Below, in pieces: positions 1 through 43,827 of a stretch of DNA of 64,000 nt. The stretch's first letter is position 1, and each line of letters starts with the position of its first letter. Source of the DNA: Burkholderiales bacterium. Lineage in GTDB: Bacteria > Pseudomonadota > Gammaproteobacteria > Burkholderiales > Usitatibacteraceae. The notes under the pieces are model-generated. The model was given only the letters and a program-made list of their open reading frames with translations. It had not been told where the DNA came from and searched no databases. The stretch spans positions 5,052 through 69,051 of the forward strand of contig JANMQR010000314.1 in the NCBI GenBank assembly GCA_031370625.1. The letters run 5' to 3'. A program made the translations under genes and the position numbers.

Positions 1-1844
1 TTTCCAGCGCCGCCCTGGTTCGCTGCACAAGTCCAACCCGTGCCTGAAGGTGCTGCACTAAGCGTTAGACCTGCGGGCAGCGTATCGACAACCGTGATGG
101 TTCCTGCACTGGTTTGCGCGCCGATATTGGTGACGGTCAGCGTGTAGGTTCCGGTTGCGCCGACAGTGAAGTTGCCGTTATGGGTTTTGGTCATCACCAG
201 ATCAGTCGCGATTACGGGCGTGACTACCGTTGACACGTTATTGCCGGTATAAGTCGGTGCTTCGGCAACCGTCGTGCTGGCGATAGTTGCTGTGTTGGAT
301 GCACTCGGGAAAGCGCCAGCAGCAACCGCAACAGGGATGGTTATCGCATTCGTGTTGGTCGCCCCTGCCGCAATCGCTGCCGTACTGGTGCAATTAATAT
401 TTGCGCTGCCCACGGTGTTGTTGCCAGCACCACCCTGGTTTGCCGCGCAAGTCCAACCTGTTCCTGTAGGCACAGCAGAAAGTGTTAATCCGGTGGGTAA
501 TGTATCGGTGACGGTATAGACATTGCCGGCCGCGAAATTCCCTGCTCCTGCATTCTTTGCAGTAATCGTGTAGGTGCTATTGATACCAATAACAAACTGT
601 GTCGGACCCGCTTTGGTAATTTGCAGATCGAAATCATTGACCGGCGTAACCAGTGATGTCGAATTGTTGCCAGTCGCACTCGCCGGCTCACCGCCGCCAG
701 ATACGCTTGCCGTATTGGTGACACTCGGTACGGCCGCTTGTGCGACCGCGACCGATAATGTGACAACTGTGGATGTTCCCGCGGGGGCAATGGACGTTGT
801 GCTGGTGCAATTAATATTGCTGGAGCCAATCGTATTGTTACCAGCGCCGCCCTGATTTGCCGCGCATGTCCATCCCGCGCCCACCGTAGGGACGGCGGCG
901 AGCGTAATGCCCGCTGGCAGCGTATCGATTAGGGTGTAACTCGCGGCACCAGTAGAGACGCCGCCAACATTGGTCACGCTCAGCGTGTATGTACCCGGCA
1001 CCCCTGGCGTAAAGCTTACAGAGCCGGTTTTGTTGACTTTAATGTCAGCGCAGTCCGTTGCGCAAACTGACGTGACCACGGCACCGCTTGAGTTATTGCT
1101 ACTATTTGAAGCGGGTTCGCCACCACCAGATACAGTCGCAATATTGGACACGCTCGGCGATGCAGCTGCCGATGGCAGCACCGTGACGGTAATGGCATTG
1201 GCATTAGTCCCGCCAGCAGCGATCACCGTGGTGTTCGTGCAGTTGAGTTGTGTAGACGTCGATGCTGCGCAATTCCAGCCCGTTCCGGTTGGCGTGCCGA
1301 CGATCGTTAATCCCGTTGGCATATTATCGATGACCGTGTACGTGCCAACGGTTGCACTACTGCCGAGAAGATTATTGACCGAAATCGAATACGACCCATT
1401 TATGCCGATGCCGAAAGTGCCATTGGCCGTTTTGACGATCTGCAAATCAGGGCTCGGCGTAATCGTCACACTGGCTTGGTCATTTTCACCCGCAATATTG
1501 TTATTCGGCGTCGAATTGGGATCGGCCTGATCAGCGTAATAAACCTCTGCCGTATTGGTGATCGATGTGGCCACCGTCACGTTCGCAGTAATCGTCAGGG
1601 TCGCGCTTGCGCCGCTGTTAAGTGTACTCACCATCCACACGCCGGCAATACCGTTGGGTGCTACCACACCCACGTTGTAGACACCTTGGGTGGCCGTGGC
1701 AGAAACAAGCGTAAGACCTGCCGGCAGCTGATCTTTAACGCGCACATCGGTCGCGCGATTTGGTCCATTGTTGGCGACGACGACCTTGAAAGTTACTTGA
1801 TTGCCCGGCGTTAGATTGGTCGCGGTCTTGGTAAGTCGAAGATC
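1..1844 (-). repeat. Tandem array of at least 5 diverged coding modules (about 396-426 nt each) inside gene D
   Basis: Module starts on the minus strand are at about 1844, 1448, 1046, 629 and 203. A conserved nucleotide core recurs at 1-45, 421-470 and 838-880 (ccagcRccRccctgRtttgcYgcRcaWgtcca). It encodes GWTCAANQGGAGNNT. Confidence 0.7.
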
Positions 1845-2708
1845 CGATCGTTGGCCCGGCGCACTGGCTAGATCGCCCCATGCGACCGCGATGCTGGTAC
1901 CAAGCTGTGTCGCGATCAATGAGCCAATATTGACGGTATACAGATTAGTCACCGCGCCAGCCTGTTCCATCACGAACAGCCGACCCGCACTGTCAAACGA
2001 GCAGCCTGGCAAGTTAGCAGGCGTGCCGCCACCTGACAACGTGATCGAGCCAAGACGAGTAACCGCGCCGGTGGGCGAAATAGTAAACAAACTCGGCGTG
2101 TTACCACCGCCAGTGCTGGCCACCATGTAAAGCTGGTTCGTACCGGGCTGCAAACACAAATCTCCACCGGGAGGAATGTTGATACCGTCAGGCCCGCCAG
2201 CAGGCGTTTGCGTGATCACCGCACCTGAATTGGTATCGAGCGTAAAAATTGTGGCTGGCGGCGCAACGCCGAAGGTGGGCGTGGGATTGATTGCATACAA
2301 GGTGCCTGCACCATCAAACCCCAAGCGAATCACTGCCGTTACGGCTGCGCCGGTAGAGCCCACTAGCACGGGCAGTATGGTAGGCGTGCCGGGATCCCAA
2401 CGCCAAAGCTGGGGATTTGCACCCTGCGAATCAAGGTAGAACAACATACCATCGCTCGGCCGAACAGCGAGTGTGGCCGCCGCCACCAATGGCGCAGCGA
2501 ACGTCACCGCCTTTGTCACCAATTGCGTCGCGGTCTGGCCCGTTGCCGAATCGACAGTATAAATACCCGTCGCATCAATACCGTAAACAGTTTCGGCATT
2601 GGCTGCAGGCATAAACCAAGAGCAAATCGAAAGCGAGATGGCGGCGAGTGGCGACAGTAACCAATCACGCCCGCGGCGTTTAGTCGCATCGCATTTATTT
2701 TCACGCAC
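1..2708 (-). CDS. Gene D of the DUF11 operon: exported beta-propeller-like domain plus tandem DUF11-type repeat protein; first 902 codons only (3' end lies beyond window start)
   Basis: Absent from the ORF track because no stop lies in the window. Hand translation of the minus strand shows the frame open from GTG at 2708 to position 1. GAGG lies 5 nt upstream of the GTG, which is 26 nt after the stop of the 2369-aa gene. The N-terminus VRENKCDATKRRGRDWLLSPLAAISLSICSWFMPAANA/ETVYGIDATGIYTVDSATGQ is a signal peptide. About 250 aa of Gly/Thr-rich propeller-like sequence follow. Then come modules starting DLRLTKTATN, DLQIVKTANG, DIKVNKTGSV, DLQITKAGPT and DLVMTKTHNG, with LPxGL and GW(T/N)C..NC motifs. 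All listed minus-strand ORFs in 1-2708 are in another frame. Confidence 0.8.
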   Translation of the reverse strand, partial: MRENKCDATKRRGRDWLLSPLAAISLSICSWFMPAANAETVYGIDATGIYTVDSATGQTATQLVTKAVTFAAPLVAAATLAVRPSDGMLFYLDSQGANPQLWRWDPGTPTILPVLVGSTGAAVTAVIRLGFDGAGTLYAINPTPTFGVAPPATIFTLDTNSGAVITQTPAGGPDGINIPPGGDLCLQPGTNQLYMVASTGGGNTPSLFTISPTGAVTRLGSITLSGGGTPANLPGCSFDSAGRLFVMEQAGAVTNLYTVNIGSLIATQLGTSIAVAWGDLASAPGQRSDLRLTKTATNLTPGNQVTFKVVVANNGPNRATDVRVKDQLPAGLTLVSATATQGVYNVGVVAPNGIAGVWMVSTLNSGASATLTITANVTVATSITNTAEVYYADQADPNSTPNNNIAGENDQASVTITPSPDLQIVKTANGTFGIGINGSYSISVNNLLGSSATVGTYTVIDNMPTGLTIVGTPTGTGWNCAASTSTQLNCTNTTVIAAGGTNANAITVTVLPSAAASPSVSNIATVSGGGEPASNSSNNSSGAVVTSVCATDCADIKVNKTGSVSFTPGVPGTYTLSVTNVGGVSTGAASYTLIDTLPAGITLAAVPTVGAGWTCAANQGGAGNNTIGSSNINCTSTTSIAPAGTSTVVTLSVAVAQAAVPSVTNTASVSGGGEPASATGNNSTSLVTPVNDFDLQITKAGPTQFVIGINSTYTITAKNAGAGNFAAGNVYTVTDTLPTGLTLSAVPTGTGWTCAANQGGAGNNTVGSANINCTSTAAIAAGATNTNAITIPVAVAAGAFPSASNTATIASTTVAEAPTYTGNNVSTVVTPVIATDLVMTKTHNGNFTVGATGTYTLTVTNIGAQTSAGTITVVDTLPAGLTLSAAPSGTGWTCAANQGGAG

Positions 2709-2734
2709 GGGCGCCTCAAAATTTATAGTTGTTT

Positions 2735-5700
2735 TCATTGGTCTACACGCGGCTTCCCGGCAGGCTGACTTGGTGAGGTAGCATCACCTTTCGCGCCCTC
2801 AATAATCCCGCGATAGGCGGAACTCCCAGGAGCCGTCCCCGTTGGGGTTGTCTCGGCCCTGGACGCATCGTCTGCTGTATTCGATGAACTATTCTTAACC
2901 GATTTCGGAAACAAGTCTTCATCAAACTTGTAGCGGAGCCGCAAATACGTGCCCTTGTTTGTGTATTCGCCGTTTGCGAAATCTTCATCGCGATAACCGT
3001 AGACGTTATAGCCGCCGGACAGCCACAAATTCTCCATCACCATAAAGCCCAGCTCGACACCAACCGCATATGTTTTGGATTGCAAGGCGCGACCAATTAC
3101 GGTTGAGCCGGTTACCGAGATATCCCAGCGCGGTGCAATTTCCCAAATCGCGCGTGCAGACAGCAAATGCGCACTATTCTTCGCTTTGATGCCGTTCGAA
3201 TCTTCGTTGACCCATTTCGCCGCGTAGCGCCCTGAGAACGTGAATGGACGACGCGGTTGCCAATTGGCGTGCAACGAGAATAATTCCACCGTGCGCTTGA
3301 GTTGCAATTCAGGTTGCGTTGTATCGTTTTCACTGCGATGCTCAACCCGCGCCAAACCATTCCACACATCGGTTTCGGTATCGCGGTAAGCCACACCAAC
3401 CTGCAAACGTTCTTGTTCATTTTTGCCCGTTTGCGTTTGCGTCTGCGCACCCTGATTTTTGATCAATGAATATGTATTGCGACCCAGGAAAGTCCACTCG
3501 CGATTAATCTTGGAGGCGACGGCCACGGTTGATAGTAGCGAGTCGCTACTGGTGCCGTCGCGAAGCTCCAAGCGGGTCGAGCCTTTCCACAACGGGCTTG
3601 CGGTGTACTCAAGACCGAACGTGAGCGCAGCCGATTCACCGGTGCCGGTGCCGGAGAATGAATGCACCCGCTCAAAGCCAGTTTGCAGTTTCAAACCGTC
3701 ACTTAACGTCCATAGATTTCGTAGCCCTAATGCAGCCTCGGCATCGCCACCCGAAATGGCATCGCGAATGCGGTACTCGCTGAATACGTTGCCGTCTTTC
3801 ATGTAGTCCGTGCTGATACCGATCACGCTGCTATTTTGTCGCTGCACAGTATTTAAACCGTATGGGCCGGTGAGCGAGGAAATGAACTCGTGGCGGCCAT
3901 ACAAACGGCCGCTGTTCGGCAATTTGTATTCACCGCCAATCGCCGCAATTTTGCGATCTGTATCTTTAGGGTCAACCTCCGCTTCTATGTACGCGGCGGC
4001 ATCTTTTATGCCCGGAATATCGCCTGTCAAGCGAGTGCGAATGCTGGTGACTTCCGTGGGCAACGGTCCAGATGCTGTTGTCGCAGGTGCCAGCGTTTCG
4101 CGCGCATGACGCACACCTAATTCCAGGCGCATGCCATTGTCGAGCGTGCGCTCAACAGCTGCGAGCAGGCCATCACGCTTACCGTTGCTGAGCAAATCTT
4201 CGCTGCGCAACATCTCTGCCTTCAGGCGGGTTTTCTCGTCAATCCGGTATGAAACATTGCCGCCAATTTCAGTTCTGCCACTGCTGAGACTGGAGCTGAT
4301 ATTGTCGAATTTTGCATCGGCGCGACCTGCGTAAAACAGCGCATCTATGTCGTCGCCTTTATGGCGGAATTCAACGCGCGAAGCGATGCCTTTTTTCTCG
4401 CCTTTGGTATCCCCGGTCGTGCCCGAACCAACACCAGACAAACCGCCCGCAATGCTGGTGCCCACTCGGTCACGAGTAGTTTGCGCAATCTCGGCAATCA
4501 GAAACGTTTTGTCCGCGAGCTTGGCAATCGCGTTAATACCGATCATGCGGAATTTATCAACCGGATTGCGATCATCAACCACCATCGCACCGATTTCAAA
4601 ATTATTCGTTAATTTGATTTGTGCATCCGCACCCGCGACCCAGAACTGTTCGCCGCCTTGATCTATTTCATAGGTGACGCGAATCGAATTTGGGTTAAAC
4701 AATTCATCGAGCGTTGGCACTGGCGCTTTCAAAATAATACGGCCCGTTAACGGTTCAAGCTCGTAGTCAGCGAAACGTGCAAGTGGCACTGTGCGAATAA
4801 TCACGCCAGTCTGGTTGCGATCTCGGGTAATGATTTCAACTTTTTCGCTGTTGATTAAGCCCTTGGCATTTGCAAGCGTGAATGGGCCAGACGTGCCATT
4901 CGCTTTAAATTCCTGCAACAATTGACGCGTTGTGTCGCGGCTAGCGAAAAGATTGGCCGAGATTTTATCGTTCTCAAAGTGCTGCTTTAAGCCCGTTAGC
5001 GAGCGATTGTAATTGGCGAGTTTGCGTGCCTCGGATGCGGACGTGGTGTTGTAGTCACCGTAGAGCAAATACGATTTTTTATTATCGACGCGAACATAGA
5101 AACGACCTGTGGATTGCGCATCAAACGCACGCACGCTGGAGTCGCCATAGACCGGATAGAACTCATCAGGCTGAATATCGCGGAATAAACGATCCCGCGT
5201 ATTTTTATCTGAATCATAAGCTAACGTCAGCAAATACTCGCCTTTGATTTTGCCTTTGATAAACATCGCCGCACGTGCACCAGCATCGTATTTGCCACCA
5301 TTCCAATTGCGCGAAATATGCGTGATCTCTTGCTCGAAACCGTCTTGCGCGCGGGCAGGCGTTAGCGCACGAGTGTCGAGCTTGCGCAAATTCAGCACGC
5401 CCTCAATCACACCGACCGCCAGCAGTTCGCGCACATCCGGCAAGAAATCAAGGCGAGCCTCTGAACTCAAAGCACCGCTGCGCACATTAATCACGGCCTG
5501 ACCGGGCTCAGCCGGCGGCAGCAAGGTAAATTCACCCACACCGCCCGCCACAAAGTTTTGTACACCAGGCTCAGCCGTATTCAAATCTTCGGCTTGCCAG
5601 CGCCCGAGATTAGTTAGCAAAGTGATAGCGGTGCGCGATGTCACGGCCACACCTTTGCTGTCAACGACACGCACAATTACCGTGACCGGCGTTTTTCCGT

Positions 5701-8700
5701 CAGCTCGGGCACCTGCGCTTGTAGCCTGCGGAAACTCGATCAACAACTTAGAAATATTGCCCGGGGCTGTCACTTTGATGGTGGCTTCACCGCGCTCGTT
5801 GCCAAACGCGTCAATTTGCTTTGCGGTCAGCGTATTCACACCCGGTATCAAATCCGCACCGATAAATTCCCACGCCTGCAATTTTTTGTCTTCCATGACC
5901 GCTTTTTTACCCACGCGATCATCAGCCAGCTCTTTACCATTGACGAACAGTTTGAACGTCGTGCCCTGCACACCTTTGACGCGAATCGTGGATTGCTTAT
6001 AGGCCAGCGTGTCGCCATCTTTCAAGCCAATAAAGCCAAGCGTATTGTTTTCTTGCGGCAGAATATTTTCGAGCGTGATCGCAGGCGCGTCGGAGCTACG
6101 ATCCACAATGGCGCGATTCAATGGCGGCTGCGCAGGCGCAATAGTGGCAAAGCCGACAGTGCCTAGCGTGGCCGCGTTTGCCAGTGTATTAATACCCGAC
6201 GGCAAAATCGATGCAGCACTGGGCGCCGGCGCTTGGCTGGACGGCGCAGTCAAGCCCACCACGCCGCTTGCGGGCAATGCCTTGATATCAGTTGCAAATC
6301 TATTAGCGGGATCAGTGGTCAGTTGCTGCTGCAAACGGCCATCGATTTCAGTTTTTAATTTGTTTGCTTCATCGCGACGCACCGCGACTTGATTCGCCAC
6401 TGACTCGCTACATGACTGAATCGCAAAGTCAGCTTTGTGCAGCTCGCCATATTTCACATCGAGGAACCGGCTGTCGCCCTTACCAGTGTTGCGATTTGAG
6501 CCCGTCGCAAAATCTTTGGCGTCAATGCCGGCGGGCAGCGTGGTTCGATCAATTTTCAGCACATGCGTGCGCGCGGAAAGGCCGTAGAAACTGTATTTTC
6601 CTTCACTGTCGGAAACAACGTTAGTACCGTCCTCCAGATACAAACGAACACCCGGAACGCCGACTTCACGCGCCAGTTTTTTCTTGTTCGCGTCATCTGT
6701 AGGCAGATTTTGTATGCCGTTTTTATCGCAATCGATAAATACTTTGCCGACGACATACGCTTTGTCGCTGAGTACACCGCCAACAATCGTCACCTGCGCC
6801 GCTGCAACATTCGACTCACTGAAACGCGTGCCACCGTTACCGATGCGATAAGTTGCGACGACTCGATTGATACCATCGCCTTGTGCAGCGCCCGGCCCGA
6901 CGCGCACTCGGTAAGCGACGCGAACCTGCTGACCCAGCGCCATGCTGCCGATATTGAAAATTAGGCGCGAGCCGGAAACAAATTGCGGATCGGCGAGTGG
7001 CTTGCCTTCGAGGCGCGCCGTGCCGAGCACAAATGAGAAACCTGCTGGCAGCGAGTCCGTTAGCAGCACCGGGCTTTGATTCAATGCGTAGCCGGTGTTG
7101 TTATTGATTGTGACGCTGTAATCCGTTAAGTCACCGATCTCGACGGTAGTGCGCGACACCGTCTTCTGCACAAACAATCCACCAATACGGCCCGCGTCCA
7201 CCGGAATATCGATGATGACTGGCCCCGTCTCCGGCCCCACGCGGAACGCGCCACCATAGGAGCCACCTGTGGTTGGCCCGGTCGCCAACACGTTGCGCCC
7301 GGACGGCAGCTGGCTCACTGGCACAGCAGATACAAACGTATAACCGTTCGGTGGCGTGACTAATGCGCAATAATCGCCCGGCGACACCAGCGGGAAATCG
7401 AAGCGCCCGTCCGCACGCGTCACCACCGTCGCAGGCGCTGTGACAATAGAGCCATTCACAAGCTGGCTCACTGTCGCCAAGGTGCTTGTACACACACCAC
7501 CCTGCGCGGTGACCAATCTCACCGTCGCACCAGCAACAGGCTCATTGGTGCGGCTGTCAAACACGACGCCGTTAGGGTCGATCACAGTTACGCTGGTTGC
7601 AATTCTGCGTCCGCAACCGATAATTTCCACGCTGTAAGTGTCGTATGAATTACCCTCAAGGATGTTGTCGCCTGCGACCACTGGGGGCTTACGAACCGGC
7701 AATCCACCTGCTTCAAAAATACCGGTGTTAGGTCCCGTCTCAATCGCGATTATTTCTTCGCGTTCACCGTTAGCACCAGTGATGATAATAGTGCGGCGCT
7801 CAATCACATCTGGCAATTGATTACACGAAGGTGCATTCGCACGCAAAAATAAATCACGACCAATAAACGCCCACGGCGTGGCACGCAGGAAGCCGCCATC
7901 GATGAAACCTTGGATAATATTTTCTACCGTGGCGGTCGTACCAATAGTGGTTGTATCGCGATTGGTGAGCGTTCCGCTGGATGTTGTATTGACGCGGAAA
8001 TCTGTTGTGTTGCTCGCACCGCTTGCTGCGTTTACGGGTGCTACTACACGGCTCAAGAACACAATGCGCGCACCGGGCGACAGTGTAAATGTGCTGCTTG
8101 GCGTCACAACGACATCAGTCGCGTCGAACACGCCCACAATGGATTGACCACCCGCGACTGTGTTATCAACGACAATTTGTGCCGTCCAGCTGGCACTGCC
8201 ATTGACGAGGAAATTTGCTGGGAAGGTGATTGTTTCGCTACACGTGCCAACGTTAGTGAGCACGTGTGTGTACACAACATTTCCGCCCGGTGTGGTGCGA
8301 CCGGTGTTGTCTGGCTCCAGCACGACACGACACAGATTAGCAATTGATGTCACCACATCATCATCGACGGCACGAATGAGCGGATTGGTGATTGACTGCG
8401 CATTTTTGGAAACGCGGAACGGGCCACCTGCGATGCCCGGCGGCAGAATTGCTTTCACGACAATGCGATAAGTTGCACCCGCGGCGACGGGCCCGGTATC
8501 GGGAATCGTGTTGCCGTTGGTATCGGTCAATGGCGTGACGCCATCGGCTTTGAATAGCTGGAAAATCGTACCGGGTGGGAAGTTTGACCCCGATAAGGTC
8601 ACATCAAAACTATCGGACTTGCTGGTGTTGTTGGTCAACACGTTATTAAACGTGACTGCGCTACCGGGATCAGCTGAAGCCAGCGTCACGCCGCGCAAGG

Positions 8701-9844
8701 TGATGTTTTCTGTTCCGGTGATGCGGAAATCCACCGGGTTGCTGGTAAGCGGACCCACTCGTGTGCCGTTAACACTGGTGTAAGAATTTTCTGCGACGTT
8801 GGTGAGCACGCTATTCAACGCAAGGCCAGGCGCAATATTCACATCAAAAGAAACGAGGCCGGATTCATTCTGTGGCATCGTCGCGAAGTTCACGCTGACG
8901 CGATCGGCCGCGGTTGTGTAGGTGCCAGTAAGACCATTGAACATAAACGGCCCACTTGCCGCATTCAGACTTGCATCATTGGTTTGTGGAGGTGCTGCAA
9001 GGCGCAAGGTGCCGGGCACATAGGTCATGCCGGCAGGCAACACATCCGAAATAGTGACGTTGGTTTTTACAGCATCACCAATGCCTGCATTGCCATAACG
9101 AATCAACACGCGATAGGCACCGCTAGGCGAATTTCCTTGAATCGCGGAAATGGATTTACTGAAAAACAAATCGTAAGTCGTTGGCACGACAATCGGCGCG
9201 ACGATAACGAGACATTGATTCGTCACCGCATTTAAAACATTGGCGATACCGGTAATGGAGGCTGGCCCATTCGTAAACGCAGCCGGATTACCCGCGCAAC
9301 TTGCATTAATTTGCGTTGGCGCATTGGTGACGCCGCTCACAGAGATGTCACAAACCTGTGTGCCCGGCACCATGCTCGCATTCGACACGCTAATCGTCGA
9401 TGGCTGGGTAAACGTGACGGCGCCCGCGCAGCCGGGAGATCGTGTGACCACAGGCGCAGCGGTCAAACGTAAGCCTGCTGGCAATGTGTCTGTAAAGGCA
9501 ACGCCCGCTTGCGCAGGTGAGCCGAATGTATTGAACAGGCTGAATCTGATGGTCGCGGTTTCACCCGGATTAATGGACTCGACGGCGAACGACTTTCGCA
9601 ATGACGGCAAGCCCGCTGCTGCGCCAACAGTAGCCGTCACCATGTTGCTGGTGGTGGACTGCGGCAGGCCGCCAATTTGCTGGCTGCTCGAGGCGGTGTT
9701 GCTCAGCACGGTACCGGTGGGTGGTGGTGCGGCTAGAGCGCTCTGGCTGATCGCGAATGCCGCAACCAAACTCAACGCGACGCTGATTGGCCTGGCAAAT
9801 GAGCTGCATAGACGAGAATTTTTTTGATTATTATTCATCGTCAA
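2735..9844 (-). CDS. Gene C: giant exported protein (2369 aa) with DUF11 / Cna-B / SdrD-B / Big_1-like repeats fused to an ~840-aa C-terminal outer-membrane beta-barrel-like region
   Basis: ORF track. The TTG at 9844 abuts the TAG of the upstream gene; the ATG at 9838 is the likelier start. Signal peptide SVALSLVAAFAISQSALA/APPP.
- aa ~80-640 and ~890-1020: DUF11-type modules (LFVQKTVSRTTVEIGDLTDYSVTINNNTG..LLTDSLPAGFSF).
- aa ~755-885: Cna-B/carboxypeptidase-regulatory-like (ATVRLVTAQGG..TRADGRFDFPLVSPGDYCALVTPPNGYTF).
- aa ~1025-1145: SdrD-B-like (VVGKVFIDCDKNGIQN..GVPGVRLYLEDGTNVVSDSEGKYSFYGL).
- aa ~1362-1468: Big_1/invasin-like (ADGKTPVTVIVRVVDSKGVAV).
- aa ~1470-2307: amphipathic beta-strand-rich region ending GGYNVYGYRDEDFANGEYTNKGTYLRLRYKF.
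- Last 62 aa: S/T/P/G-rich tail. Confidence 0.85.
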   Translation of the reverse strand: MTMNNNQKNSRLCSSFARPISVALSLVAAFAISQSALAAPPPTGTVLSNTASSSQQIGGLPQSTTSNMVTATVGAAAGLPSLRKSFAVESINPGETATIRFSLFNTFGSPAQAGVAFTDTLPAGLRLTAAPVVTRSPGCAGAVTFTQPSTISVSNASMVPGTQVCDISVSGVTNAPTQINASCAGNPAAFTNGPASITGIANVLNAVTNQCLVIVAPIVVPTTYDLFFSKSISAIQGNSPSGAYRVLIRYGNAGIGDAVKTNVTISDVLPAGMTYVPGTLRLAAPPQTNDASLNAASGPFMFNGLTGTYTTAADRVSVNFATMPQNESGLVSFDVNIAPGLALNSVLTNVAENSYTSVNGTRVGPLTSNPVDFRITGTENITLRGVTLASADPGSAVTFNNVLTNNTSKSDSFDVTLSGSNFPPGTIFQLFKADGVTPLTDTNGNTIPDTGPVAAGATYRIVVKAILPPGIAGGPFRVSKNAQSITNPLIRAVDDDVVTSIANLCRVVLEPDNTGRTTPGGNVVYTHVLTNVGTCSETITFPANFLVNGSASWTAQIVVDNTVAGGQSIVGVFDATDVVVTPSSTFTLSPGARIVFLSRVVAPVNAASGASNTTDFRVNTTSSGTLTNRDTTTIGTTATVENIIQGFIDGGFLRATPWAFIGRDLFLRANAPSCNQLPDVIERRTIIITGANGEREEIIAIETGPNTGIFEAGGLPVRKPPVVAGDNILEGNSYDTYSVEIIGCGRRIATSVTVIDPNGVVFDSRTNEPVAGATVRLVTAQGGVCTSTLATVSQLVNGSIVTAPATVVTRADGRFDFPLVSPGDYCALVTPPNGYTFVSAVPVSQLPSGRNVLATGPTTGGSYGGAFRVGPETGPVIIDIPVDAGRIGGLFVQKTVSRTTVEIGDLTDYSVTINNNTGYALNQSPVLLTDSLPAGFSFVLGTARLEGKPLADPQFVSGSRLIFNIGSMALGQQVRVAYRVRVGPGAAQGDGINRVVATYRIGNGGTRFSESNVAAAQVTIVGGVLSDKAYVVGKVFIDCDKNGIQNLPTDDANKKKLAREVGVPGVRLYLEDGTNVVSDSEGKYSFYGLSARTHVLKIDRTTLPAGIDAKDFATGSNRNTGKGDSRFLDVKYGELHKADFAIQSCSESVANQVAVRRDEANKLKTEIDGRLQQQLTTDPANRFATDIKALPASGVVGLTAPSSQAPAPSAASILPSGINTLANAATLGTVGFATIAPAQPPLNRAIVDRSSDAPAITLENILPQENNTLGFIGLKDGDTLAYKQSTIRVKGVQGTTFKLFVNGKELADDRVGKKAVMEDKKLQAWEFIGADLIPGVNTLTAKQIDAFGNERGEATIKVTAPGNISKLLIEFPQATSAGARADGKTPVTVIVRVVDSKGVAVTSRTAITLLTNLGRWQAEDLNTAEPGVQNFVAGGVGEFTLLPPAEPGQAVINVRSGALSSEARLDFLPDVRELLAVGVIEGVLNLRKLDTRALTPARAQDGFEQEITHISRNWNGGKYDAGARAAMFIKGKIKGEYLLTLAYDSDKNTRDRLFRDIQPDEFYPVYGDSSVRAFDAQSTGRFYVRVDNKKSYLLYGDYNTTSASEARKLANYNRSLTGLKQHFENDKISANLFASRDTTRQLLQEFKANGTSGPFTLANAKGLINSEKVEIITRDRNQTGVIIRTVPLARFADYELEPLTGRIILKAPVPTLDELFNPNSIRVTYEIDQGGEQFWVAGADAQIKLTNNFEIGAMVVDDRNPVDKFRMIGINAIAKLADKTFLIAEIAQTTRDRVGTSIAGGLSGVGSGTTGDTKGEKKGIASRVEFRHKGDDIDALFYAGRADAKFDNISSSLSSGRTEIGGNVSYRIDEKTRLKAEMLRSEDLLSNGKRDGLLAAVERTLDNGMRLELGVRHARETLAPATTASGPLPTEVTSIRTRLTGDIPGIKDAAAYIEAEVDPKDTDRKIAAIGGEYKLPNSGRLYGRHEFISSLTGPYGLNTVQRQNSSVIGISTDYMKDGNVFSEYRIRDAISGGDAEAALGLRNLWTLSDGLKLQTGFERVHSFSGTGTGESAALTFGLEYTASPLWKGSTRLELRDGTSSDSLLSTVAVASKINREWTFLGRNTYSLIKNQGAQTQTQTGKNEQERLQVGVAYRDTETDVWNGLARVEHRSENDTTQPELQLKRTVELFSLHANWQPRRPFTFSGRYAAKWVNEDSNGIKAKNSAHLLSARAIWEIAPRWDISVTGSTVIGRALQSKTYAVGVELGFMVMENLWLSGGYNVYGYRDEDFANGEYTNKGTYLRLRYKFDEDLFPKSVKNSSSNTADDASRAETTPTGTAPGSSAYRGIIEGAKGDATSPSQPAGKPRVDQ

Positions 9845-12800
9845 CTACATCGTATTAATCTTCACGCAGAACTGCAGCGTGATGGTTTGGTTTTGCGCGA
9901 GCGGTGTTGTTGCTGCGGGTGAGGATTGCGCATTAATCGTTCCAGTAAAGCCAGCGGGGTAAGTGCCCCTCAACGCAATTGGCCCGGTAACAGTTGGTGC
10001 ACCGCAACCCAGCTCAAGCGATGTATTCGGCGGTACAAGATCGCTCAAATTAATATTCGTTGCGTTAGCCGTCGCCGAATTGATGCCGACGATAAGGTAT
10101 GAAATACAGTTTCCCGGAATCGTATTTGCACTCGCCGCCAACCCAGCACTACTCCAAGGCGAATTTGGCACGCCTGCGGTTAACGTTGTTGTCGGTGTCG
10201 TGGTGCAGGAGCCGTTTCCGCCGGGAAGCTGCTGATATTTTGCGAGCTTGAGTCCATCAGAAAGTGATGTGGTGTCAGTTACCGTCAAGATAGAAGCACC
10301 TCCGTTATACGTCACCGTTGCGGTCGTGATATTCGGCGGGCTGCCGACGGCAAGCGGCGCAGTCACGCGGATGAAAATAGCGCGCTGCTCGTTCGGCAAT
10401 AGAGCAGGAATAGTGGTGGTACCCGGCACAATTTGCGCATCTGTGCCCGCATCAAAAACACCGTTGCCATTGGTATCAATAAACGCGGTTGAAGTCCACC
10501 CGAACATCGGTGTTTGGTTATTCGCTAAAAAATTAGCCGGAAACACAATGGTTTCAGCGAGATTTCCGTTGTTCGTCAGCGTGTGCGTATACGTGACTGT
10601 CGCGCCTGCCACCGTACCCTGCGCGCCGTTCGGGGTTAGCGTTACTGCATGCACAGGCGCCACCGTGACCTGATCGCGTATCGTGTCGGCAATCGCTGGA
10701 TTGCTTTGATTTGCAATCCCGAACTGAATCACATAACTGCCGGCAGGCGACGGTGTCGGTGTCGCCACTGTGCCAGGGCTGGTTGCGGGCACGGTCACTT
10801 CTGCACAGACGATACGACTGCCACCGGCCGGTATCGGTGCGGCACCAGTGGTCGTGACTGCCGCGCCCAAGGGCGCATTACAGTTGGTGCCGTTACCGCT
10901 GTCCTTAAACGTGACAACCCAGCCCGCTGGTGGTGTCGCCAAGCCCACCGTGCCGGGCACGGAAATAAACGATGCACTCAAGTTATAAATCGACGCAATC
11001 GCGCTGGTGTTGTTGGCATAGAGCGTGAACACCGTCGTGGTCGGGGCTGCCAGCGCTGGCGTCACTGTATTGGTGATCTGCACTGTTGCGTTGTCAGGCC
11101 CTGTGCCCAATACGCCCACGCCAGCGAGGGGCGCATTGTTGGTGATGTCGGTGCTATTTGGAATAATAGTGGTGAGCGTATCGACCACGGTATCGAAGCG
11201 CGTGGTGTCGAAACGCGAGCGAGCTTCCAGCGTAATTCGATAACCATTGCCGCTGTTGTTTCCCGCCACCGCATTCGCAGGCAGCGTGGCGCGAATCACC
11301 ACCGGGTAGCCGCAGGAAACACCGCTTGCGCTGATGATGTAAGGCGCAGGACATGCGCCTGCATTTGGCAACGGAATCGTTCCCGTATCGGGGATGCCGT
11401 TGCCATTGCTGTCTTGTAACGCGGTGGCACCGTTAAACGACAAGATTTGGAAGGTGGTACCGGGCGGGAAAGTACACGCATCGACCACGCTACTATTCGC
11501 GGGACTACAAGTAGCACCGTTGGCTGACAATGCATTACCGGGATAGGCGGCTGCGGAAGTGCCATCACGAATAATCACATCAAAACTATCGGGCGAGGCG
11601 CCACGGTTCCACACGTAATCGGTGAACGTGACGGATTGCCCCGGCGCGGCGCTGGGTGCGGTAACTGGCTCGTTATCGGTAATGCCCGTGGTGGTGGAAG
11701 ATCCATTCACCGATAAATTCGCCGTTTGCACCACCGTGTATTGCACAGAGTTGGTTGGTGCGGGCGGCACCGAAATGGTGGTGACCCCAATCGTGTAGCC
11801 GTACTGAACGCTCGCGGTATTGGTGGTGGTGATCGCGTTTGATGGCGAGGTGACCGGCAAATTCGGCGCAATCGTTACCTGAAAATACACGCTGCCGTTG
11901 GCTGCCGGTGCCAATACTGTCAAGGTTGCATCGACCGCGCCCGAGACAGCCGTGGTCGGCGCTTGATACGTGATGCCAGCAGGATCGCCCGCAGGTGCAT
12001 CGGTGAGGGCGGTGGATGGGCCGGAAACAGACCAGCGCCCAGTGCCGGGCAGATACAACCAACCGCTCGGCAATTGGTCGAGCAGGCGCACATTGTCCGC
12101 CTGAATTGAGCCTGTGTTCGCGTACTCCAACACCACATAAAGCGGCCCCGAATTCGGGCTGACACCACCGGCGACCGGAATATAGCCCGGTGGTGGCACG
12201 CTCGATAATTTTTTCGTTACATTTACAGCCGCCGCACCAATCGTCGTGGTGTCGACCTGCGTGAGCGTATTTACTGTCGGCGCGTTGGTATCGCTGACTG
12301 AAACAATAATGGTACCGGCTTGCCCCACGGTGGCCGTTGCAGCCGTGGTGCCGCATACGACGAAGCTAAAACTCGCCCCCGCATTTATCGATACGGCTGC
12401 CGTAATCGGTGTTGCAGAATCCGCCACGCCGTCCTGATTGGCGTCCGAAAAATAAACGAGACCGGTATGCGCAAACATGCCGCCCGTGGTGGCTGGGTTC
12501 AGCGTGTATGAATCGGTACCATTACCGGTATTGGTAATCGTGTGTGGGTAGCAAACTTGTTGACTGGCGGGGACAGTCTTGGCACCTGTTTGCGTGAGCG
12601 TAAAGCTCTTCACCTGCAAGACGGTCGTCTGTACGGTGTTCGATGTGACGGGCCGCACCGTACCAGTGCTGTCCACATAAGTTGCTGAGGCTTGATTGCC
12701 GATCACCGAATTCGCAGGAGCAGGTGCTGCATGCGCGGCCAACGAGAGCAAAACCATGGTCGCAGTGAGCAAAAAGGCGAGCGCCTTCTCACGCGCGCGC

Positions 12801-12853
12801 AGCGCATATCGCATCCAGACGAATCCGGTCTGGTAGGATACGAGGACATCCAT
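9845..12853 (-). CDS. Gene B: exported 1002-aa multi-domain DUF11-type repeat protein
   Basis: ORF track. GGAGA lies 8 nt upstream of the ATG at 12853; an alternative start is M14 at 12814. Signal-like segment KALAFLLTATMVLLSLAAHA/APAP. There are repeated ~130-150-aa modules with motifs such as VCYPHTITNTGNGTDSYTL, VTFTDYVWNRGASPDSFDV and VTYTHTLTNNGNLAETIVFPANF. The C-terminus (TLQFCVKINTM) carries no membrane anchor or sorting signal. Confidence 0.85.
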   Translation of the reverse strand: MDVLVSYQTGFVWMRYALRAREKALAFLLTATMVLLSLAAHAAPAPANSVIGNQASATYVDSTGTVRPVTSNTVQTTVLQVKSFTLTQTGAKTVPASQQVCYPHTITNTGNGTDSYTLNPATTGGMFAHTGLVYFSDANQDGVADSATPITAAVSINAGASFSFVVCGTTAATATVGQAGTIIVSVSDTNAPTVNTLTQVDTTTIGAAAVNVTKKLSSVPPPGYIPVAGGVSPNSGPLYVVLEYANTGSIQADNVRLLDQLPSGWLYLPGTGRWSVSGPSTALTDAPAGDPAGITYQAPTTAVSGAVDATLTVLAPAANGSVYFQVTIAPNLPVTSPSNAITTTNTASVQYGYTIGVTTISVPPAPTNSVQYTVVQTANLSVNGSSTTTGITDNEPVTAPSAAPGQSVTFTDYVWNRGASPDSFDVIIRDGTSAAAYPGNALSANGATCSPANSSVVDACTFPPGTTFQILSFNGATALQDSNGNGIPDTGTIPLPNAGACPAPYIISASGVSCGYPVVIRATLPANAVAGNNSGNGYRITLEARSRFDTTRFDTVVDTLTTIIPNSTDITNNAPLAGVGVLGTGPDNATVQITNTVTPALAAPTTTVFTLYANNTSAIASIYNLSASFISVPGTVGLATPPAGWVVTFKDSGNGTNCNAPLGAAVTTTGAAPIPAGGSRIVCAEVTVPATSPGTVATPTPSPAGSYVIQFGIANQSNPAIADTIRDQVTVAPVHAVTLTPNGAQGTVAGATVTYTHTLTNNGNLAETIVFPANFLANNQTPMFGWTSTAFIDTNGNGVFDAGTDAQIVPGTTTIPALLPNEQRAIFIRVTAPLAVGSPPNITTATVTYNGGASILTVTDTTSLSDGLKLAKYQQLPGGNGSCTTTPTTTLTAGVPNSPWSSAGLAASANTIPGNCISYLIVGINSATANATNINLSDLVPPNTSLELGCGAPTVTGPIALRGTYPAGFTGTINAQSSPAATTPLAQNQTITLQFCVKINTM

Positions 12854-13015
12854 TACATTTTTCTCCGTTGCCTTTTTACGGCTTTTTTGCCGTTTTTTTT
12901 GTTGCTTTTTTACTGTTTTTTTACTACTTTTTTCTGCGCTAATTTGTTATCTAATTCTTGCTTTGTGTTGTGCTTTGCTTCGTTTTTTACTTTTTCCCGT
13001 CTTACCCAACCCCGG
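12854..13015 (-). promoter_or_regulatory. A-rich (mRNA sense) intercistronic spacer with roughly helically phased A/T tracts between genes A and B
   Basis: Plus-strand T runs of 5-8 nt start at 12858, 12873, 12883, 12893, 12906, 12916, 12928, 12983 and 12991. Centre-to-centre spacing for runs 2-7 is about 10.5-12 nt. This is the only long untranslated gap inside the operon. Confidence 0.5.
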
Positions 13016-13606
13016 CTATTTTTTTAAAGTTACGTCGACACCACTAACACTGGCAGCACCCGCGGCCACCCTGAACTGCGCCGAAAAAACAATTGATTGC
13101 TTTGGGCCTAACTCGCCCGGATACCAGCGCAGATAGCGATATTCACTCAGCGCTACCACCTGCTCAACTTCTACGCCATTTGCCTGCTTCACTTTTCGCT
13201 TTAGCGGCATGGCAAAAAAATTTGTCCCGTCAACGCTCGCGCGCGCGGCCGCTGGCGTGACGGTGTTCATAACCAATTCAGTATTAACCGGCACTGGCAA
13301 TGTCGCCACAACACCACTCAGTGTGCGACTGGATTTGTTAGTGTAGGTCGCCAAATCTTGCAGCACTTCGCCGGGCTTGGCAGTTGACGCATTCTGTAAT
13401 GATTCTTTGCCGGCGACGATGACAACTTTGCTGCGTTCCAGTCGGATGTCGAGTGGATTATCGGCCGCATTGTTCGTCACAACTTTTTGAGCCACAGCCG
13501 CGCTCACTCCGCCTACTGTCAGTGCACCGCAAGCTATACAAGCTGCTATCGCAAAATTTTGCCCAATGTTTCGACCGATGTTCCGATTTAGCGCGCGAAC
13601 CAACAT
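13016..13606 (-). CDS. Gene A: exported 196-aa single beta-sandwich (DUF11-like) protein
   Basis: ORF track. GGGGAG RBS upstream of the ATG at 13606. Signal/TM segment FAIAACIACGALTVGGVSAAVA/QKV. The mature ~160 aa carry DUF11-like motifs (PGEVLQDLATYTNKSSRTLSGVVATLPVPVNTELV .. YLRWYPGELGPKQSIVFSAQFRV). Confidence 0.8.
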   Translation of the reverse strand: MLVRALNRNIGRNIGQNFAIAACIACGALTVGGVSAAVAQKVVTNNAADNPLDIRLERSKVVIVAGKESLQNASTAKPGEVLQDLATYTNKSSRTLSGVVATLPVPVNTELVMNTVTPAAARASVDGTNFFAMPLKRKVKQANGVEVEQVVALSEYRYLRWYPGELGPKQSIVFSAQFRVAAGAASVSGVDVTLKK

Positions 13607-13760: not shown

Positions 13761-13920
13761 CCTTTGTAAAACTTTAAGAATGTGCGATTAATTCTTGTAT
13801 TAAATACGTTTTTTATCTGGCGCGTGTAGATTTTTTCCTCGGCTTTACCGCTCACGAATTTGGATTAGCACTTGTTATCTACGTCAGCACTGCACTTTTC
13901 ACAAAGCAGGCACGCAAGTT

Positions 13921-13949
13921 TCGACATATTGCGAATGCGCAGCTATAAT
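13921..13949 (+). promoter_or_regulatory. Sigma70-type promoter of tRNA-Ser (TCGACA-17 nt-TATAAT)
   Basis: -35 TCGACA at 13921-13926, a 17-nt spacer, and -10 TATAAT at 13944-13949. The -10 lies 30 nt upstream of the mature tRNA 5' end. Confidence 0.6.
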
Positions 13950-13979
13950 CACTATTCGCGAATTAGCGAACGGCCCTGC

Positions 13980-14070
13980 GGAGAGGTGGCAGAGTGGTCG
14001 AATGCACCAGACTCGAAATCTGGCGTACGGTTTTACCGTACCGTGAGTTCGAATCTCACCCTCTCCGCCA
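13980..14070 (+). tRNA. tRNA-Ser (anticodon CGA), CCA encoded
   Basis: Folded by hand.
- Acceptor stem GGAGAGG/CCTCTCC.
- D stem GCA/TGC.
- Anticodon stem CCAGA/TCTGG with loop CTCGAAA.
- Long variable arm GTACGGT-TTT-ACCGTAC (class II).
- T arm GTGAG-TTCGAAT-CTCAC.
- Discriminator G plus CCA. Confidence 0.95.
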
Positions 14071-14075
14071 AACAC

Positions 14076-14100
14076 GAAACCCCGCAAGGGGTTTTTTGTT
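14076..14100 (+). terminator. Rho-independent terminator of tRNA-Ser
   Basis: gAAACCCC-gcaa-GGGGTTTtttgtt: GC-rich stem, GCAA tetraloop and a T run. Confidence 0.8.
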
Positions 14101-14244
14101 TGGCGGAGAGGAGTGAGCCAACTGCTTGGCTCACGCGTGAGATTCGAAGGGTTTTGCCTAAAGGCAAAACCGCGGCCCGCAGAATGTGGGCGAATCTCAC
14201 CCGGCCCTACAAACACGAAACCCCGCAAGGGGTTTTTTGTTTTG
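14101..14244. repeat. Inverted and direct partial copies of the tRNA-Ser 3' end plus a perfect 32-nt duplicate of the terminator
   Basis: - 14101-14111 (tggcggagagg) is the reverse complement of the tRNA 3' end at 14060-14070.
- 14137-14148 (gtgagattcgaa) is the reverse complement of the T loop/stem at 14048-14059.
- 14191-14202 (cgaatctcaccc) repeats 14050-14061 in direct orientation.
- 14211-14242 is identical to 14070-14101 (aaacacgaaaccccgcaaggggttttttgttt). Confidence 0.8.
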
Positions 14245-14270
14245 TTCGCTGCGAGGTCTAACGGGTTCGC

Positions 14271-14310
14271 AGAAAAAGCAAAAGGCGCAATCAATGCGCC
14301 TTTTGCTTTT
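14271..14310 (-). terminator. Rho-independent (bidirectional-looking) terminator downstream of the OmpA-family gene
   Basis: The 12-bp stem GCAAAAGGCGCA/TGCGCCTTTTGC (14278-14289 / 14295-14306) has a 5-nt loop. It is flanked by an A run and a T run. Confidence 0.75.
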
Positions 14311-25268: not shown

Positions 25269-25683
25269 AGCGCTTTTGTAAGGATTCGCCGACAACAGAA
25301 GCGGGGGTATTCCGGTCTTTTTAATTGAGTGCTTCAGAAATAATCAATTGGTCGAAATCGAATTACAGGCCATTATGAAAACTTCAAATGCACTCAAGCA
25401 GCGTGGGTTGGTCAGTGTTCTGGCGAATGAGCCCGAGGTGGCTCCCGACCACGTCCTCCGTTCCCCATTCGGCGTCATGAATTTTTTAGCGCCAGTATCG
25501 CAACTCAAACCGCGCGCAGTGCTTCATTCGCACAACACGTCTGCGCGTCTCGGCCCAGCGCATACGAATTTCGCCCGCACATCGGCTTTTCCGCTCCCGG
25601 GGCTCCGCGCCATGCCCGTACCTGATGGCCGAAGCCATGAAACGTTGACGAATTCAGTGACGAACCTGAAGACCAATTCCCCA

Positions 25684-26493
25684 ATGCAAAATAGCCTCTT
25701 GGCGGCATTGTCGCCAGCAGAACTTGATCGACTCACCCCCCATTTGGAATTGGTGAAAATGTCACTCGGCGACGTGCTCTACGAGTCCGGCGGTCGCCTG
25801 CAGCACGTGTTTTTTCCGACCACCTCAATTGTGTCACTGCTCTATGTGCTCGAAGACGGTGCATCGACGGAAATCGCGGCGGTGGGCAATGAAGGCATTC
25901 TTGGCGTGTCCACCTTCATGGGCGGCGACACGACGCCAAGCCGTGCGGTCGTACAAAGCGCGGGATACGGTTATCGCATCACCACACAAAATCTAAAGCA
26001 AGAATTCGAGCGCACTGGCGGCTTGTTCAGGCTTCTGTTGAGATACGCCCAAGCGCTGATGACGCAGACCGCACAAATGGCGGTTTGCAATCGCCACCAC
26101 TCGCTTGAACAACAGCTGTGCCGGCGACTTCTGTTCAGCCTGGATCGCCTGCCCACCGATTCGCTGTTCATGACGCAAGAACTTATCGCCAATATGCTGG
26201 GCGTGCGCCGTGAAGGCGTCACCGCTGCAGCGGGAAACTTACAGCGCGCCGGGCTCATTCGCTACAGCCGCGGGCGTATCGATATTCTGGATCGCAATGG
26301 CCTGGAATCGGCGGTCTGCGAGTGTTACGGCGTAGTGAAGCTCGAATTCAATCGACTACTCTCTGACAACCACCGCAGTGATCCGTTTCACACTCTTCGG
26401 CAAGCGGAGGAACGAGTTGACTCACTTACCCACTTCACGAATAAAAATTCCGCGAGCGTCAAACGGAACGTGAGCAATTCGTTGTATGCGTGA
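25684..26493 (+). CDS. Crp/Fnr-family transcriptional regulator
   Basis: The ORF track starts at 25348, but the first 112 aa are not protein-like. The likely start is MQNSLLAALSPAELDRLTPHLELV at 25684. It has a cNMP-binding-like fold and a C-terminal HTH (ELIANMLGVRREGVTAAAGNLQRAGLI). Confidence 0.8.
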   Translation: MQNSLLAALSPAELDRLTPHLELVKMSLGDVLYESGGRLQHVFFPTTSIVSLLYVLEDGASTEIAAVGNEGILGVSTFMGGDTTPSRAVVQSAGYGYRITTQNLKQEFERTGGLFRLLLRYAQALMTQTAQMAVCNRHHSLEQQLCRRLLFSLDRLPTDSLFMTQELIANMLGVRREGVTAAAGNLQRAGLIRYSRGRIDILDRNGLESAVCECYGVVKLEFNRLLSDNHRSDPFHTLRQAEERVDSLTHFTNKNSASVKRNVSNSLYA

Positions 26494-43826: not shown

Positions 43827-43827
43827 C

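Follow-up and report, generated by a model that had tools for sequence, protein, structure and literature searches.

A 64,000-nt stretch of DNA from a Burkholderiales bacterium (assembly GCA_031370625.1, contig JANMQR010000314.1, positions 5,052 to 69,051; hereafter the window) carries four neighbouring genes, A, B, C and D, and the protein encoded by C ends in a giant predicted β-barrel. We found that A, B and C recur side by side in several phyla. On balance, we favour the reading that they form the core of a widespread, uncharacterised outer-membrane export or anchoring system of diderm bacteria, with D as its exchangeable cargo. This reading builds on what could be established directly: the gene layout and domain content, the novelty of the barrel, the synteny of the three genes, the kinship of A with a C-terminal domain (CTD) of the proteins encoded after the barrel gene, the linkage of that CTD to the barrel, and the fission and fusion of C in other genomes. 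At the level testable here, the system is outside the known secretion and pilus families.

Gene layout

Gene models were taken from a six-frame listing of the open reading frames (ORFs) of the window, and all four are on the minus strand. Gene A (13016..13606) encodes a conserved, probably accessory protein of 196 aa with a predicted signal peptide and one CTD-like β-sandwich. Gene B (9845..12853) encodes a conserved Ig-like repeat protein of 1002 aa with the CTD at its end, while the 2369-aa product of gene C (2735..9844) consists of a predicted signal peptide, an Ig-like passenger and the giant C-terminal barrel. Gene D (1..2708) is cut by the window edge and encodes at least 902 aa of a variable adhesin-type protein. 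The genes share one strand and have exactly the sizes given in a preliminary description of this DNA, which had also called them tightly packed. This is true of the C start, which directly adjoins the B stop, and of the 26 nt between the C stop and the GTG of D, with a GAGG in between, but not of the A-B junction, where the gap is 162 nt. GC content is uniform over the operon region. Signal peptides had been proposed for all four proteins, and a heuristic prediction agreed: at each N-terminus, 3-6 Lys/Arg residues precede a hydrophobic core of 12 residues (Kyte-Doolittle 2.0-2.5), and an AxA-type site is present.

The predicted barrel domain of C

The giant β-barrel domain (C 1465-2320; 2885..5452, minus strand) had no match in Pfam, in NCBIfam or among PDB sequences, permissive thresholds and a 54-sequence profile included, and judged by sequence it is a new family. 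The barrel profile found nothing below E 0.03 in the PDB, and A, B and C searched against PDB chains returned noise alone (HIV protease, antibody light chains, E >0.05). When ten single barrels were compared with Pfam at E <=10, we obtained scattered sub-threshold matches to porin families, OMP_b-brl and DUF2490, and one homologue matched Porin_4. No window ORF besides C was matched by the barrel profile, as expected from the earlier claim that C alone has a barrel.

AlphaFold2 (AF2) modelled the domain as all-β, with ~40 long strands joined by short turns; the strand number was read from the DSSP string of the model, for which the mean predicted local distance difference test (pLDDT) was 76.6 and the predicted template modelling score (pTM) 0.67. 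Foldseek gave a probability of 1.0 to many outer-membrane barrels. The PDB matches were generic large barrels alone (SlpA, MtrB, SprA, LptD, TonB-dependent receptors and PapC), with template modelling (TM) scores <=0.33 and no standout. Of these, SlpA has 30 strands. The preliminary description knew of no characterised counterpart, and the lack of a Pfam, NCBIfam or PDB sequence match, together with fold matches to generic large barrels alone, bears this out. Nor did we find a description of the barrel, the CTD or the operon in the full-text literature searched, whose coverage is incomplete. SprA, with 36 strands, has been called the largest known barrel (bioRxiv 10.64898/2026.03.07.710327). 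A 2022 preprint states that a predicted family of at least 38 strands has been reported; the figure was not found in the 2021 preprint checked as its likely source.

Two segments are the best-conserved parts of the barrel family. The first is a non-strand motif (RLFRDIQPDEFYPVYGDSS..FDAQS; C ~1555-1577; 5114..5182, minus strand) in a low-confidence segment between early strands, modelled as short helices with pLDDT <50. Its residues R91, D92, Y99, P100, G103, D104 and A112 are invariant in alignment A1. It is a candidate gating or binding element, and the RLFRDIQPDEFYPVYGDSS segment served as the pattern in the genome scan for barrel loci. The second is an inserted four-strand β-domain (C 1654-1714, EKVEIITRDRNQ...DYELEPLTGRIILK; 4703..4885, minus strand) that follows approximately the eighth strand. 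It comprises DSSP strands at 204-241 of the model, flanked by long strands, and its position in the model is plug-like. Within its pattern, EKVEI[IL]TRDR...DYE.EP.TGR, residues E203, R210, D211, R212, D229, Y230 and G237 are invariant or nearly so. The last strand of the barrel is conserved as well (...YLRLRYKFDEDLF).

Conservation of the gene neighbourhood

An exhaustive HMMER search with a cutoff of E <=0.001 yielded 5358 representatives of the barrel family at 50% identity clustering; a cutoff of E <=1e-30 left 2623. With few exceptions, the barrel forms the C-terminal end of proteins of 1000-4600 aa from Pseudomonadota, Verrucomicrobiota, Acidobacteriota, Nitrospirota and Gemmatimonadota, whose NCBI names are generic ("DUF11 domain-containing", "hypothetical"). 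Counting one genome per species, there are at least 570 barrel loci; besides members of Nitrospirota, Verrucomicrobiota, Gemmatimonadota and Acidobacteriota, the carriers include Burkholderiales, Usitatibacter, Massilia, Noviherbaspirillum, Gallionella, Steroidobacter, Moraxellaceae, Geobacteraceae and Entotheonella.

ORFs were called in 86 loci and searched with the window proteins, and 44 of these loci had enough upstream sequence to be evaluated. Upstream of the barrel gene we found B in 41/44 loci, A in 37/44 and both in 36/44, all of which are lower bounds given the crude ORF caller. The gene order was A-like (160-220 aa), B-like (~440-1180 aa), C-like, and it was seen across Burkholderiales, Gammaproteobacteria, Geobacteraceae, Nitrospirota, Verrucomicrobiota and Acidobacteriota. 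Precomputed gene calls of metagenome contigs showed the same pattern. In distant taxa, identity to the window proteins was 43-50% for the barrel, 35-48% for A, 31-37% for B over its full length and 30-42% for the N-terminal part of C.

The fourth gene behaves differently. Loci of Massilia and Noviherbaspirillum have A, a short B and C alone, and D is absent. The closest relative of the window, locus L007, shares 83% nucleotide identity through B and C, homology ends in the C tail at ~2916, and C is followed by a protein with a different head instead of D. Because homology stops at this point in L007, and because Massilia and Noviherbaspirillum do without D, A-B-C is the core and D an exchangeable slot. 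Conservation of the A-B-C-D quartet, named earlier as a point to check, thus holds for A-B-C, across phyla and reciprocally, but not for D, which is swappable and missing in Massilia.

A C-terminal domain linked to the barrel

The proteins encoded after the barrel gene range from 900 to >3000 aa and have varied domains, and all of them end in one ~100-residue CTD with the stop codon right after it (consensus ...PGD.ITYTITY.N....L.N.VI.D.TPAFT.F...C...W.L.G.L.PG....V.F.V.V). In ~30 loci spread over many phyla, a CTD profile built from the last 100 aa of these downstream proteins reached 93-146 bits, and it did so solely where the product of the post-barrel gene ends. The related domain that closes B-like proteins scored 18-62 bits, and internal DUF11 repeats scored 12-35 bits. 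In B of the window, the CTD (9848..10147, minus strand; alignment A4) extends to the very end of the protein (...LQFCVKINTM), and the profile gave 82.8 bits at B 928-1032 (six-frame coordinates). Pfam and NCBIfam found weak DUF11, DUF7927 or DUF7507 matches alone on the CTD. Most CTDs carry a conserved cysteine pair (...SA.C......T.C...; alignment A3).

A reciprocal scan was started from the CTD alone (alignment A6) in metagenome contigs, at loci with at least 6 kb of upstream sequence. A barrel gene was present on the same strand, 2-4 kb upstream, in 25/26 loci, and it scored >1000 bits in 24 of them. The conservation of the neighbourhood, which the preliminary description had left to a later comparison of genomes, thus holds strongly in both directions, from the barrel to A and B and from the CTD to the barrel.

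Profile-profile comparison (hhalign) linked the D-type CTD to the B-type CTD (99.4%, E 1.4e-21) and the A family to the D-type CTD (92.8%, E 3.9e-7). The D-type CTD reached 18% against the internal repeats of D, and A had no match to internal repeats. Short CTD matches (80-184 aa) were considered as stand-alone CTD proteins and rejected as miscalled C-terminal fragments of large proteins: they have no signal peptide and start within the preceding domain. One of them lies directly after a C-like, OmpA, D-like array.

Passenger and mosaic architecture of C

C is a mosaic of Ig-like types. Pfam matched DUF7933 (80-177), CarboxypepD_reg (759-842), one DUF11 repeat (891-997) and SdrD_B (1035-1120), and a sub-threshold Big_1-like domain was also present. 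There are six LPxGh motifs, compared with 0.74 expected from shuffles. Relatives of 2288-2520 aa have the same architecture.

The first part of the passenger is B-like (C 1-604; 8033..9844, minus strand). By BLASTP, two stretches of B align with C (B 230-525 with C 237-468, B 673-834 with C 452-604); B and the N-terminal ~600 aa of C are paralogous. The N-termini of B and C have a motif in common (AP.AGT.I.N.A.A.Y...SN.V), found in 41/49 B-like and 22/61 C-like proteins, in 0/427 other ORFs and in 0/41 members of the A family. Next comes a barrel-proximal passenger module (C 755-1184; 6293..7582, minus strand) with the CarboxypepD_reg, DUF11 and SdrD_B matches and a helix. Directly before the barrel, C 1185-1464 (5453..6292, minus strand) consists of a low-complexity P/A/S linker and Big_1/invasin-D3-like Ig domains. 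The matches in this region of C were sub-threshold (Big_1, E 3e-4; Big_13; Invasin_D3), and in homologues PF09134 or PF02369 adjoins the barrel. After the final strand and a DEDLF motif, C has a low-complexity tail of ~55 residues in which S, T, A, G and P abound (residues ~2316-2369; 2735-2900, minus strand); the corresponding tail is short in homologues.

In one sub-family (L002, L003, L036, L050, L053), C is cleanly divided into a passenger gene and a barrel gene. The giant upstream protein ends in the equivalent of C 755-1184 (37-38% identity, E 1e-65 to 1e-71, in L036, L002 and L050), and the ~1080-aa barrel protein corresponds to C 1378-2312 with a predicted signal peptide of its own. 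In L002, L003, L050 and L053 the barrel gene is followed by an OmpA-like gene. In L036 the following gene is not OmpA-like, and no A or B is visible upstream.

Gene D, an exchangeable adhesin-type protein

The N-terminal 290 residues of D matched DUF6923 with 37.9 bits, above the gathering cutoff of 27, and weakly matched beta-propeller-type families too, which makes the propeller tip proposed earlier plausible. They are followed by five Pfam DUF11 repeats (E 9.4e-60). D contains five D-L-x-h-x-K module starts and six LPxGh motifs, for which shuffles gave ~0 and ~0.4. DUF11-type modules had been attributed to all four proteins. D fully bears this out and C does in part; B has a weak TIGR01451 match alone and no strict DUF11 motif, and A has no such match.

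DUF11, introduced earlier as a surface-protein repeat to which no Gram-negative export pathway had been assigned, has since been characterised. According to PMC12617251, the domain was renamed CLIPPER in 2025, its crystal structure (9IFR) contains a Lys-Asn isopeptide bond, and this bond gives resistance to heat and proteases. The triad of 9IFR is K715/D748/N806, with spacings of 33 and 91 (PMC12617251). In the four complete CLIPPER/DUF11 modules of D (234..1844, minus strand), Lys, Asp and Asn are spaced like this triad: K6, D38 and N97 are invariant in alignment A5, with 32-36 residues from K to D and 91-106 from K to N. The stalk of D is probably stiffened by such bonds. The internal modules of D also contain cysteine pairs (W-x-C...N-C-T). 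The same source reports that disulfides are frequent in CLIPPER and DUF7933 domains of Pseudomonadota and Acidobacteriota, which fits the cysteines of the CTD and of D; secretion or a Gram-negative export route is not mentioned in the passages of it that were searched (PMC12617251).

A full-length orthologue of D, in locus L022 (E 1e-229), has 1783 aa, seven DUF11 stretches and four DUF7933 domains, and the CTD is at its exact C-terminus (135 bits). A second class of cargo head, unlike the DUF6923 head, occupies the D slot in the unrelated loci L007 (7900-9349), L035, L049 and L072, and has the N-terminal motif ...R[YF]..[NT]TNG[AD]I...GN....

Gene A

We collected 275 A homologues of 160-220 aa. 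None of them has a Pfam domain, and A itself matched no Pfam or NCBIfam family. AF2 modelled A as a single complete β-sandwich of 10 strands, with pLDDT ~96 over residues 51-180, no missing strand and no N-terminal extension. No Foldseek match reached E <=0.001, and for this reason we consider A a generic β-sandwich as far as the modelled fold goes. PapD-like chaperones were absent among the 50 matches listed, where the best geometry was that of CLIPPER 9ifr (TMt 0.53, root-mean-square deviation 3.8 Å; rank 45 by E-value). A had previously been suggested as a possible major polymerised subunit. This does not agree with its complete sandwich, with conservation like that of the barrel (35-48% compared with 43-50%) or with its kinship to the CTD, and on these three grounds a role as accessory or adaptor fits better than that of an exposed major pilin.

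The flanks of the operon

The upstream limit of the A-D transcription unit is a tRNA-Ser(CGA) gene (13980..14070, plus strand; Rfam tRNA 61.6 bits, also found by ARAGORN). The last ~20 nt of this tRNA gene and its terminator hairpin occur again 141 bp downstream (14050-14101 and 14191-14242; 52 nt at 90% identity), a repeat that resembles the remnant of an attachment-site duplication. In related Burkholderiales loci (L008, L010, L015, L016, L021, L023 and L051), this tRNA region is likewise close to gene A. Two overlapping ORFs, 13899-14294 on the minus strand (131 aa) and 13872-14261 on the plus strand, were rejected as genes. The peptide conserved in these ORFs (GEGEIRTHGTVKPYARFRVWCIRPLCHLS) arises when the tRNA-Ser gene and its partial repeat are translated in antisense; the 131-aa ORF upstream of A was discarded because of this, and ORFs of 129-131 aa here are artefacts.

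Beyond the tRNA lies an OmpA-family gene (14353..15513, minus strand) encoding an 8-strand barrel and a peptidoglycan-binding domain (Pfam OmpA 3.3e-22, OMP_b-brl 6.1e-14). Neither this gene nor the tRNA gene was in the preliminary description. Terminators and the opposite-strand tRNA-Ser separate it from A, and we rejected it as an operon member in this window since these elements intervene. It was kept as a possible partner because of linkage and fusions in other genomes: in 10/46 loci the gene immediately after the barrel gene is OmpA-like, and two proteins (P0459 and P0415) continue past the barrel into a fused OmpA domain. Such a fusion would place the barrel C-terminus in the periplasm. 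Another family member, P0369 (2393 aa), has TPR repeats after the barrel, and several others of ~2400 aa continue for ~450 residues past it.

Secretion genes were sought in A-D, the OmpA-like neighbour and 16 large ORFs of the remaining ~50 kb, the region past D being outside the window. None encoded an usher, a PapD-like chaperone, a sortase, an Omp85/TpsB protein or a type I or type II secretion component, in agreement with what had been said of the operon and its surroundings. The products of these 16 ORFs belong to metabolism and signalling. Divergent from the OmpA-like gene is a 3069-aa ORF (16059-25268, plus strand) with GH94 supersandwich, GH94 catalytic and glucoamylase-like domains, an architecture which we take to be that of cyclic β-1,2-glucan synthases (NdvB/Cgs type). 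A Crp-like regulator is encoded at 25348-26493. Two histidine kinases are encoded further on (41406-47201, plus strand): a bacteriophytochrome (PAS_2-GAF-PHY-HisKA-HATPase) and, after it, a hybrid PAS/GAF kinase that carries receiver domains.

Proposed mechanism and alternative explanations

We propose that A, B, C and D cross the inner membrane via Sec, and that the last ~850 residues of C would form an outer-membrane β-barrel of ~36-40 strands containing the conserved insert and the internal motif. This barrel would be conduit and anchor for Ig-like fibres, namely the passenger of C, fused to it in autotransporter-like fashion, the constant partner B and the variable adhesin D, a DUF6923 head on a CLIPPER stalk that is probably isopeptide-stiffened. 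Coupling of B and D to the barrel by the CTD would leave the fibres N-terminus-distal and C-terminus-proximal. A would be secreted as a CTD-like domain on its own. It probably sits at the site used by the CTD, or primes it, with the role of a plug, adaptor or assembly factor, and would not polymerise. Where an OmpA-type peptidoglycan-binding protein or domain is present, it may tether the complex to the cell wall. The self-contained module of the preliminary description, where the outer-membrane barrel serving the Ig-like neighbours would come from C, gains support from synteny and from fission and fusion, both read from sequence. A bolder version seems possible to us, and we hold it more tentatively than the export or anchoring core itself: a new secretion or assembly machine of at least five diderm phyla, in which a barrel of at least SprA size would pass or anchor folded Ig-like fibres recognised by their CTD, A would gate or prime it, and ATP-free export would be driven by the folding of the stalk outside the cell, possibly locked by isopeptide bonds.

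Several points weigh against the export or anchoring reading. The analysis is computational, and outer-membrane localisation, export and surface exposure are inferred, as are CTD docking or targeting, the role of A and the isopeptide bonds. The confidence of the barrel model is moderate (pTM 0.67). Coevolution analysis (mean-field direct coupling analysis of 322 sequences, effective number 257, with a reduced alphabet and with artefacts in the C-terminal region) recovered adjacent hairpins, the control scores being 4-10, and gave no signal for closure between first and last strand. The 26 loci of the reciprocal scan include many near-duplicate lineages, so that the independent cases are fewer. 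The CTD is a diverged member of the CLIPPER superfamily and could be a mere conserved terminal stalk domain. Co-location speaks for functional linkage, not for translocation, and B and D may remain periplasmic or reach the surface in some other way. Neither an energy source nor a periplasmic chaperone is evident, and in this window the tRNA gene divides the OmpA-like gene from the operon.

C might instead be a self-sufficient, giant autotransporter-like adhesin that exports only its own passenger, with A, B and D as co-regulated surface or periplasmic proteins independent of the barrel. The polarity of C is that of an autotransporter (N-terminal passenger, C-terminal barrel, Big_1-like domain and linker beside the barrel), and its fused and split forms mirror types Va and Vb. 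However, ~40 strands far exceed what one unfolded chain needs, A and B are kept beside C across phyla, and the CTD family is essentially restricted to the position right after barrel genes; A, as a relative of the CTD, has no other obvious role. We think this explanation unlikely, and still less probable is the usher-like pilus platform of the preliminary description, in which C would polymerise A as major pilin by strand complementation, with B and D as minor or tip subunits. The β-domain inserted early in the barrel recalls the plug of PapC/FimD, every partner is Ig-like, B and C share a conserved, strand-like N-terminal motif, and PapC is among the Foldseek matches. It was matched no better than TonB-dependent receptors or LptD (TM 0.24/0.28), though, and neither Usher, PapC_N/C nor PapD-like families were found. 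The N-terminal motif is missing from A, whose complete 10-strand sandwich (pLDDT ~96) is conserved like machinery and unlike variable exposed pilins, and a chaperone gene is absent.

An envelope scaffold, with the barrel as a peptidoglycan-tied outer-membrane anchor and the Ig-like proteins forming a structural or spacer complex within the periplasm, would account for the OmpA-like genes and fusions described above, is compatible with periplasmic oxidation of the conserved CTD cysteine pairs, and would ask for no export energy source, which is indeed not evident. On the other hand, a pure anchor would have no use for ~40 strands, and close relatives differ in what fills the D slot, as would be expected of exposed, diversifying proteins. 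D-type proteins of 900 to >3000 aa, with DUF6923 heads and CLIPPER/DUF7933/SdrD_B stalks, are moreover typical of surface fibrillar adhesins (PMC12617251). We would give the scaffold about as little credence as the pilus platform. Least probable by far is a nutrient-uptake or porin-type channel, akin to TonB-dependent transporters of the SusC type, which have a CarboxypepD_reg domain at the N-terminus. C does contain CarboxypepD_reg, TonB-dependent receptors are among the Foldseek matches and one homologue matched Porin_4; yet the CarboxypepD_reg domain is ~600 residues before the barrel, within the Ig-like array, TM scores to TonB-dependent receptors are 0.15-0.27, Plug and TonB_dep_Rec families and a TonB box were not found in C, and fibre proteins, rather than binding lipoproteins, are its obligatory partners.

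Implications

To our knowledge, the catalogue of routes for surface proteins in diderm bacteria is thought to be nearly complete. If the export or anchoring reading is right, there would be a further surface route in thousands of lineages of soil, freshwater and groundwater bacteria. A single-chain barrel of ~36-40 strands would match or exceed SprA (36), the largest solved, and would pose a sharp question about folding by the β-barrel assembly machinery. The CTD and A families could be made into annotation models immediately, and a compact operon of three core genes with a swappable cargo slot is a potential scaffold for surface display. Culturable carriers include Massilia spp., Noviherbaspirillum suwonense DSM 26001, Oleiharenicola lentus and strain GR16-43.

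Comparison with known systems

Chaperone-usher systems (PapC/FimD) resemble this one in their large barrel, early-inserted β-domain and Ig-like partners encoded in the same operon. The usher barrel has 24 strands compared with ~40 here, and our partners are multi-domain proteins of 1000-3000 aa rather than ~150-aa pilins of incomplete fold. A was modelled as a complete sandwich (pLDDT ~96), which speaks against pilin-like donor-strand exchange, though a monomer model of this kind would be compatible with it too. Usher (PF00577), PapC_N, PapC_C and PapD-like matches were absent from A-D and their neighbours. Inverse autotransporters (intimin/invasin, type Ve) share the Big_1/Invasin_D3 domains by the barrel, sub-threshold in C and found in its homologues, and an Ig-like stalk. 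Their barrel is N-terminal, whereas that of C is C-terminal and about three times larger, and IAT_beta (PF11924) did not match C; the same was true of Plug (PF07715) and the 22-strand TonB_dep_Rec barrel.

The CLIPPER adhesin of Acinetobacter silvestris (B9T28_05395, the source of 9IFR) is similar to D in its repeats, triad spacing and head-stalk-anchor order, and D has the tandem PF01345 repeats that define CLIPPER/DUF11 fibrillar adhesins. The A. silvestris protein is a single chain with an OmpA-like anchor, whereas in our system a separate giant barrel and a dedicated CTD would serve this purpose.

Type V systems (Va/Vb) have Sec export, an N-terminal passenger and a C-terminal outer-membrane barrel in common with C; a fused gene and a split pair of passenger and barrel genes both exist, the distal end of the fibre is the N-terminus, and no ATP source is at the outer membrane. 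The differences are the size of the barrel (~40 strands compared with 12 in Va and 16 in Vb), the two additional obligatory partners A and B, and the slot for CTD-bearing cargo. PF03797 was not found on C, either with the whole protein (E <=0.01) or with the barrel alone (E <=10), and its sole trace in the region was sub-threshold, on the OmpA-like neighbour. ShlB, POTRA, Bac_surface_Ag and TPS-domain families, as expected for type Vb, were absent from A-D and the window ORFs scanned.

The type IX system of Bacteroidota (SprA/Sov) likewise combines a giant single-chain barrel with very large adhesin cargo whose final ~100 aa form an Ig-like domain that marks it, and SprA was among the Foldseek matches. 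The barrel of C has no sequence similarity to SprA (TM 0.21-0.22), its host phyla are different, and here the cargo is encoded beside the barrel and not scattered. Type IX components were not found among the Pfam and NCBIfam matches of C, D-like proteins and the window ORFs scanned, nor was a type IX sorting-domain family among the NCBIfam matches of CTD-bearing proteins. We draw the analogy to types V and IX because fused and split forms recall the former and a giant barrel with an Ig-like C-terminal signal recalls the latter. If correct, the A-B-C core would be an independent invention of the type IX logic of giant barrel plus CTD signal, with the cargo packaged in one operon.

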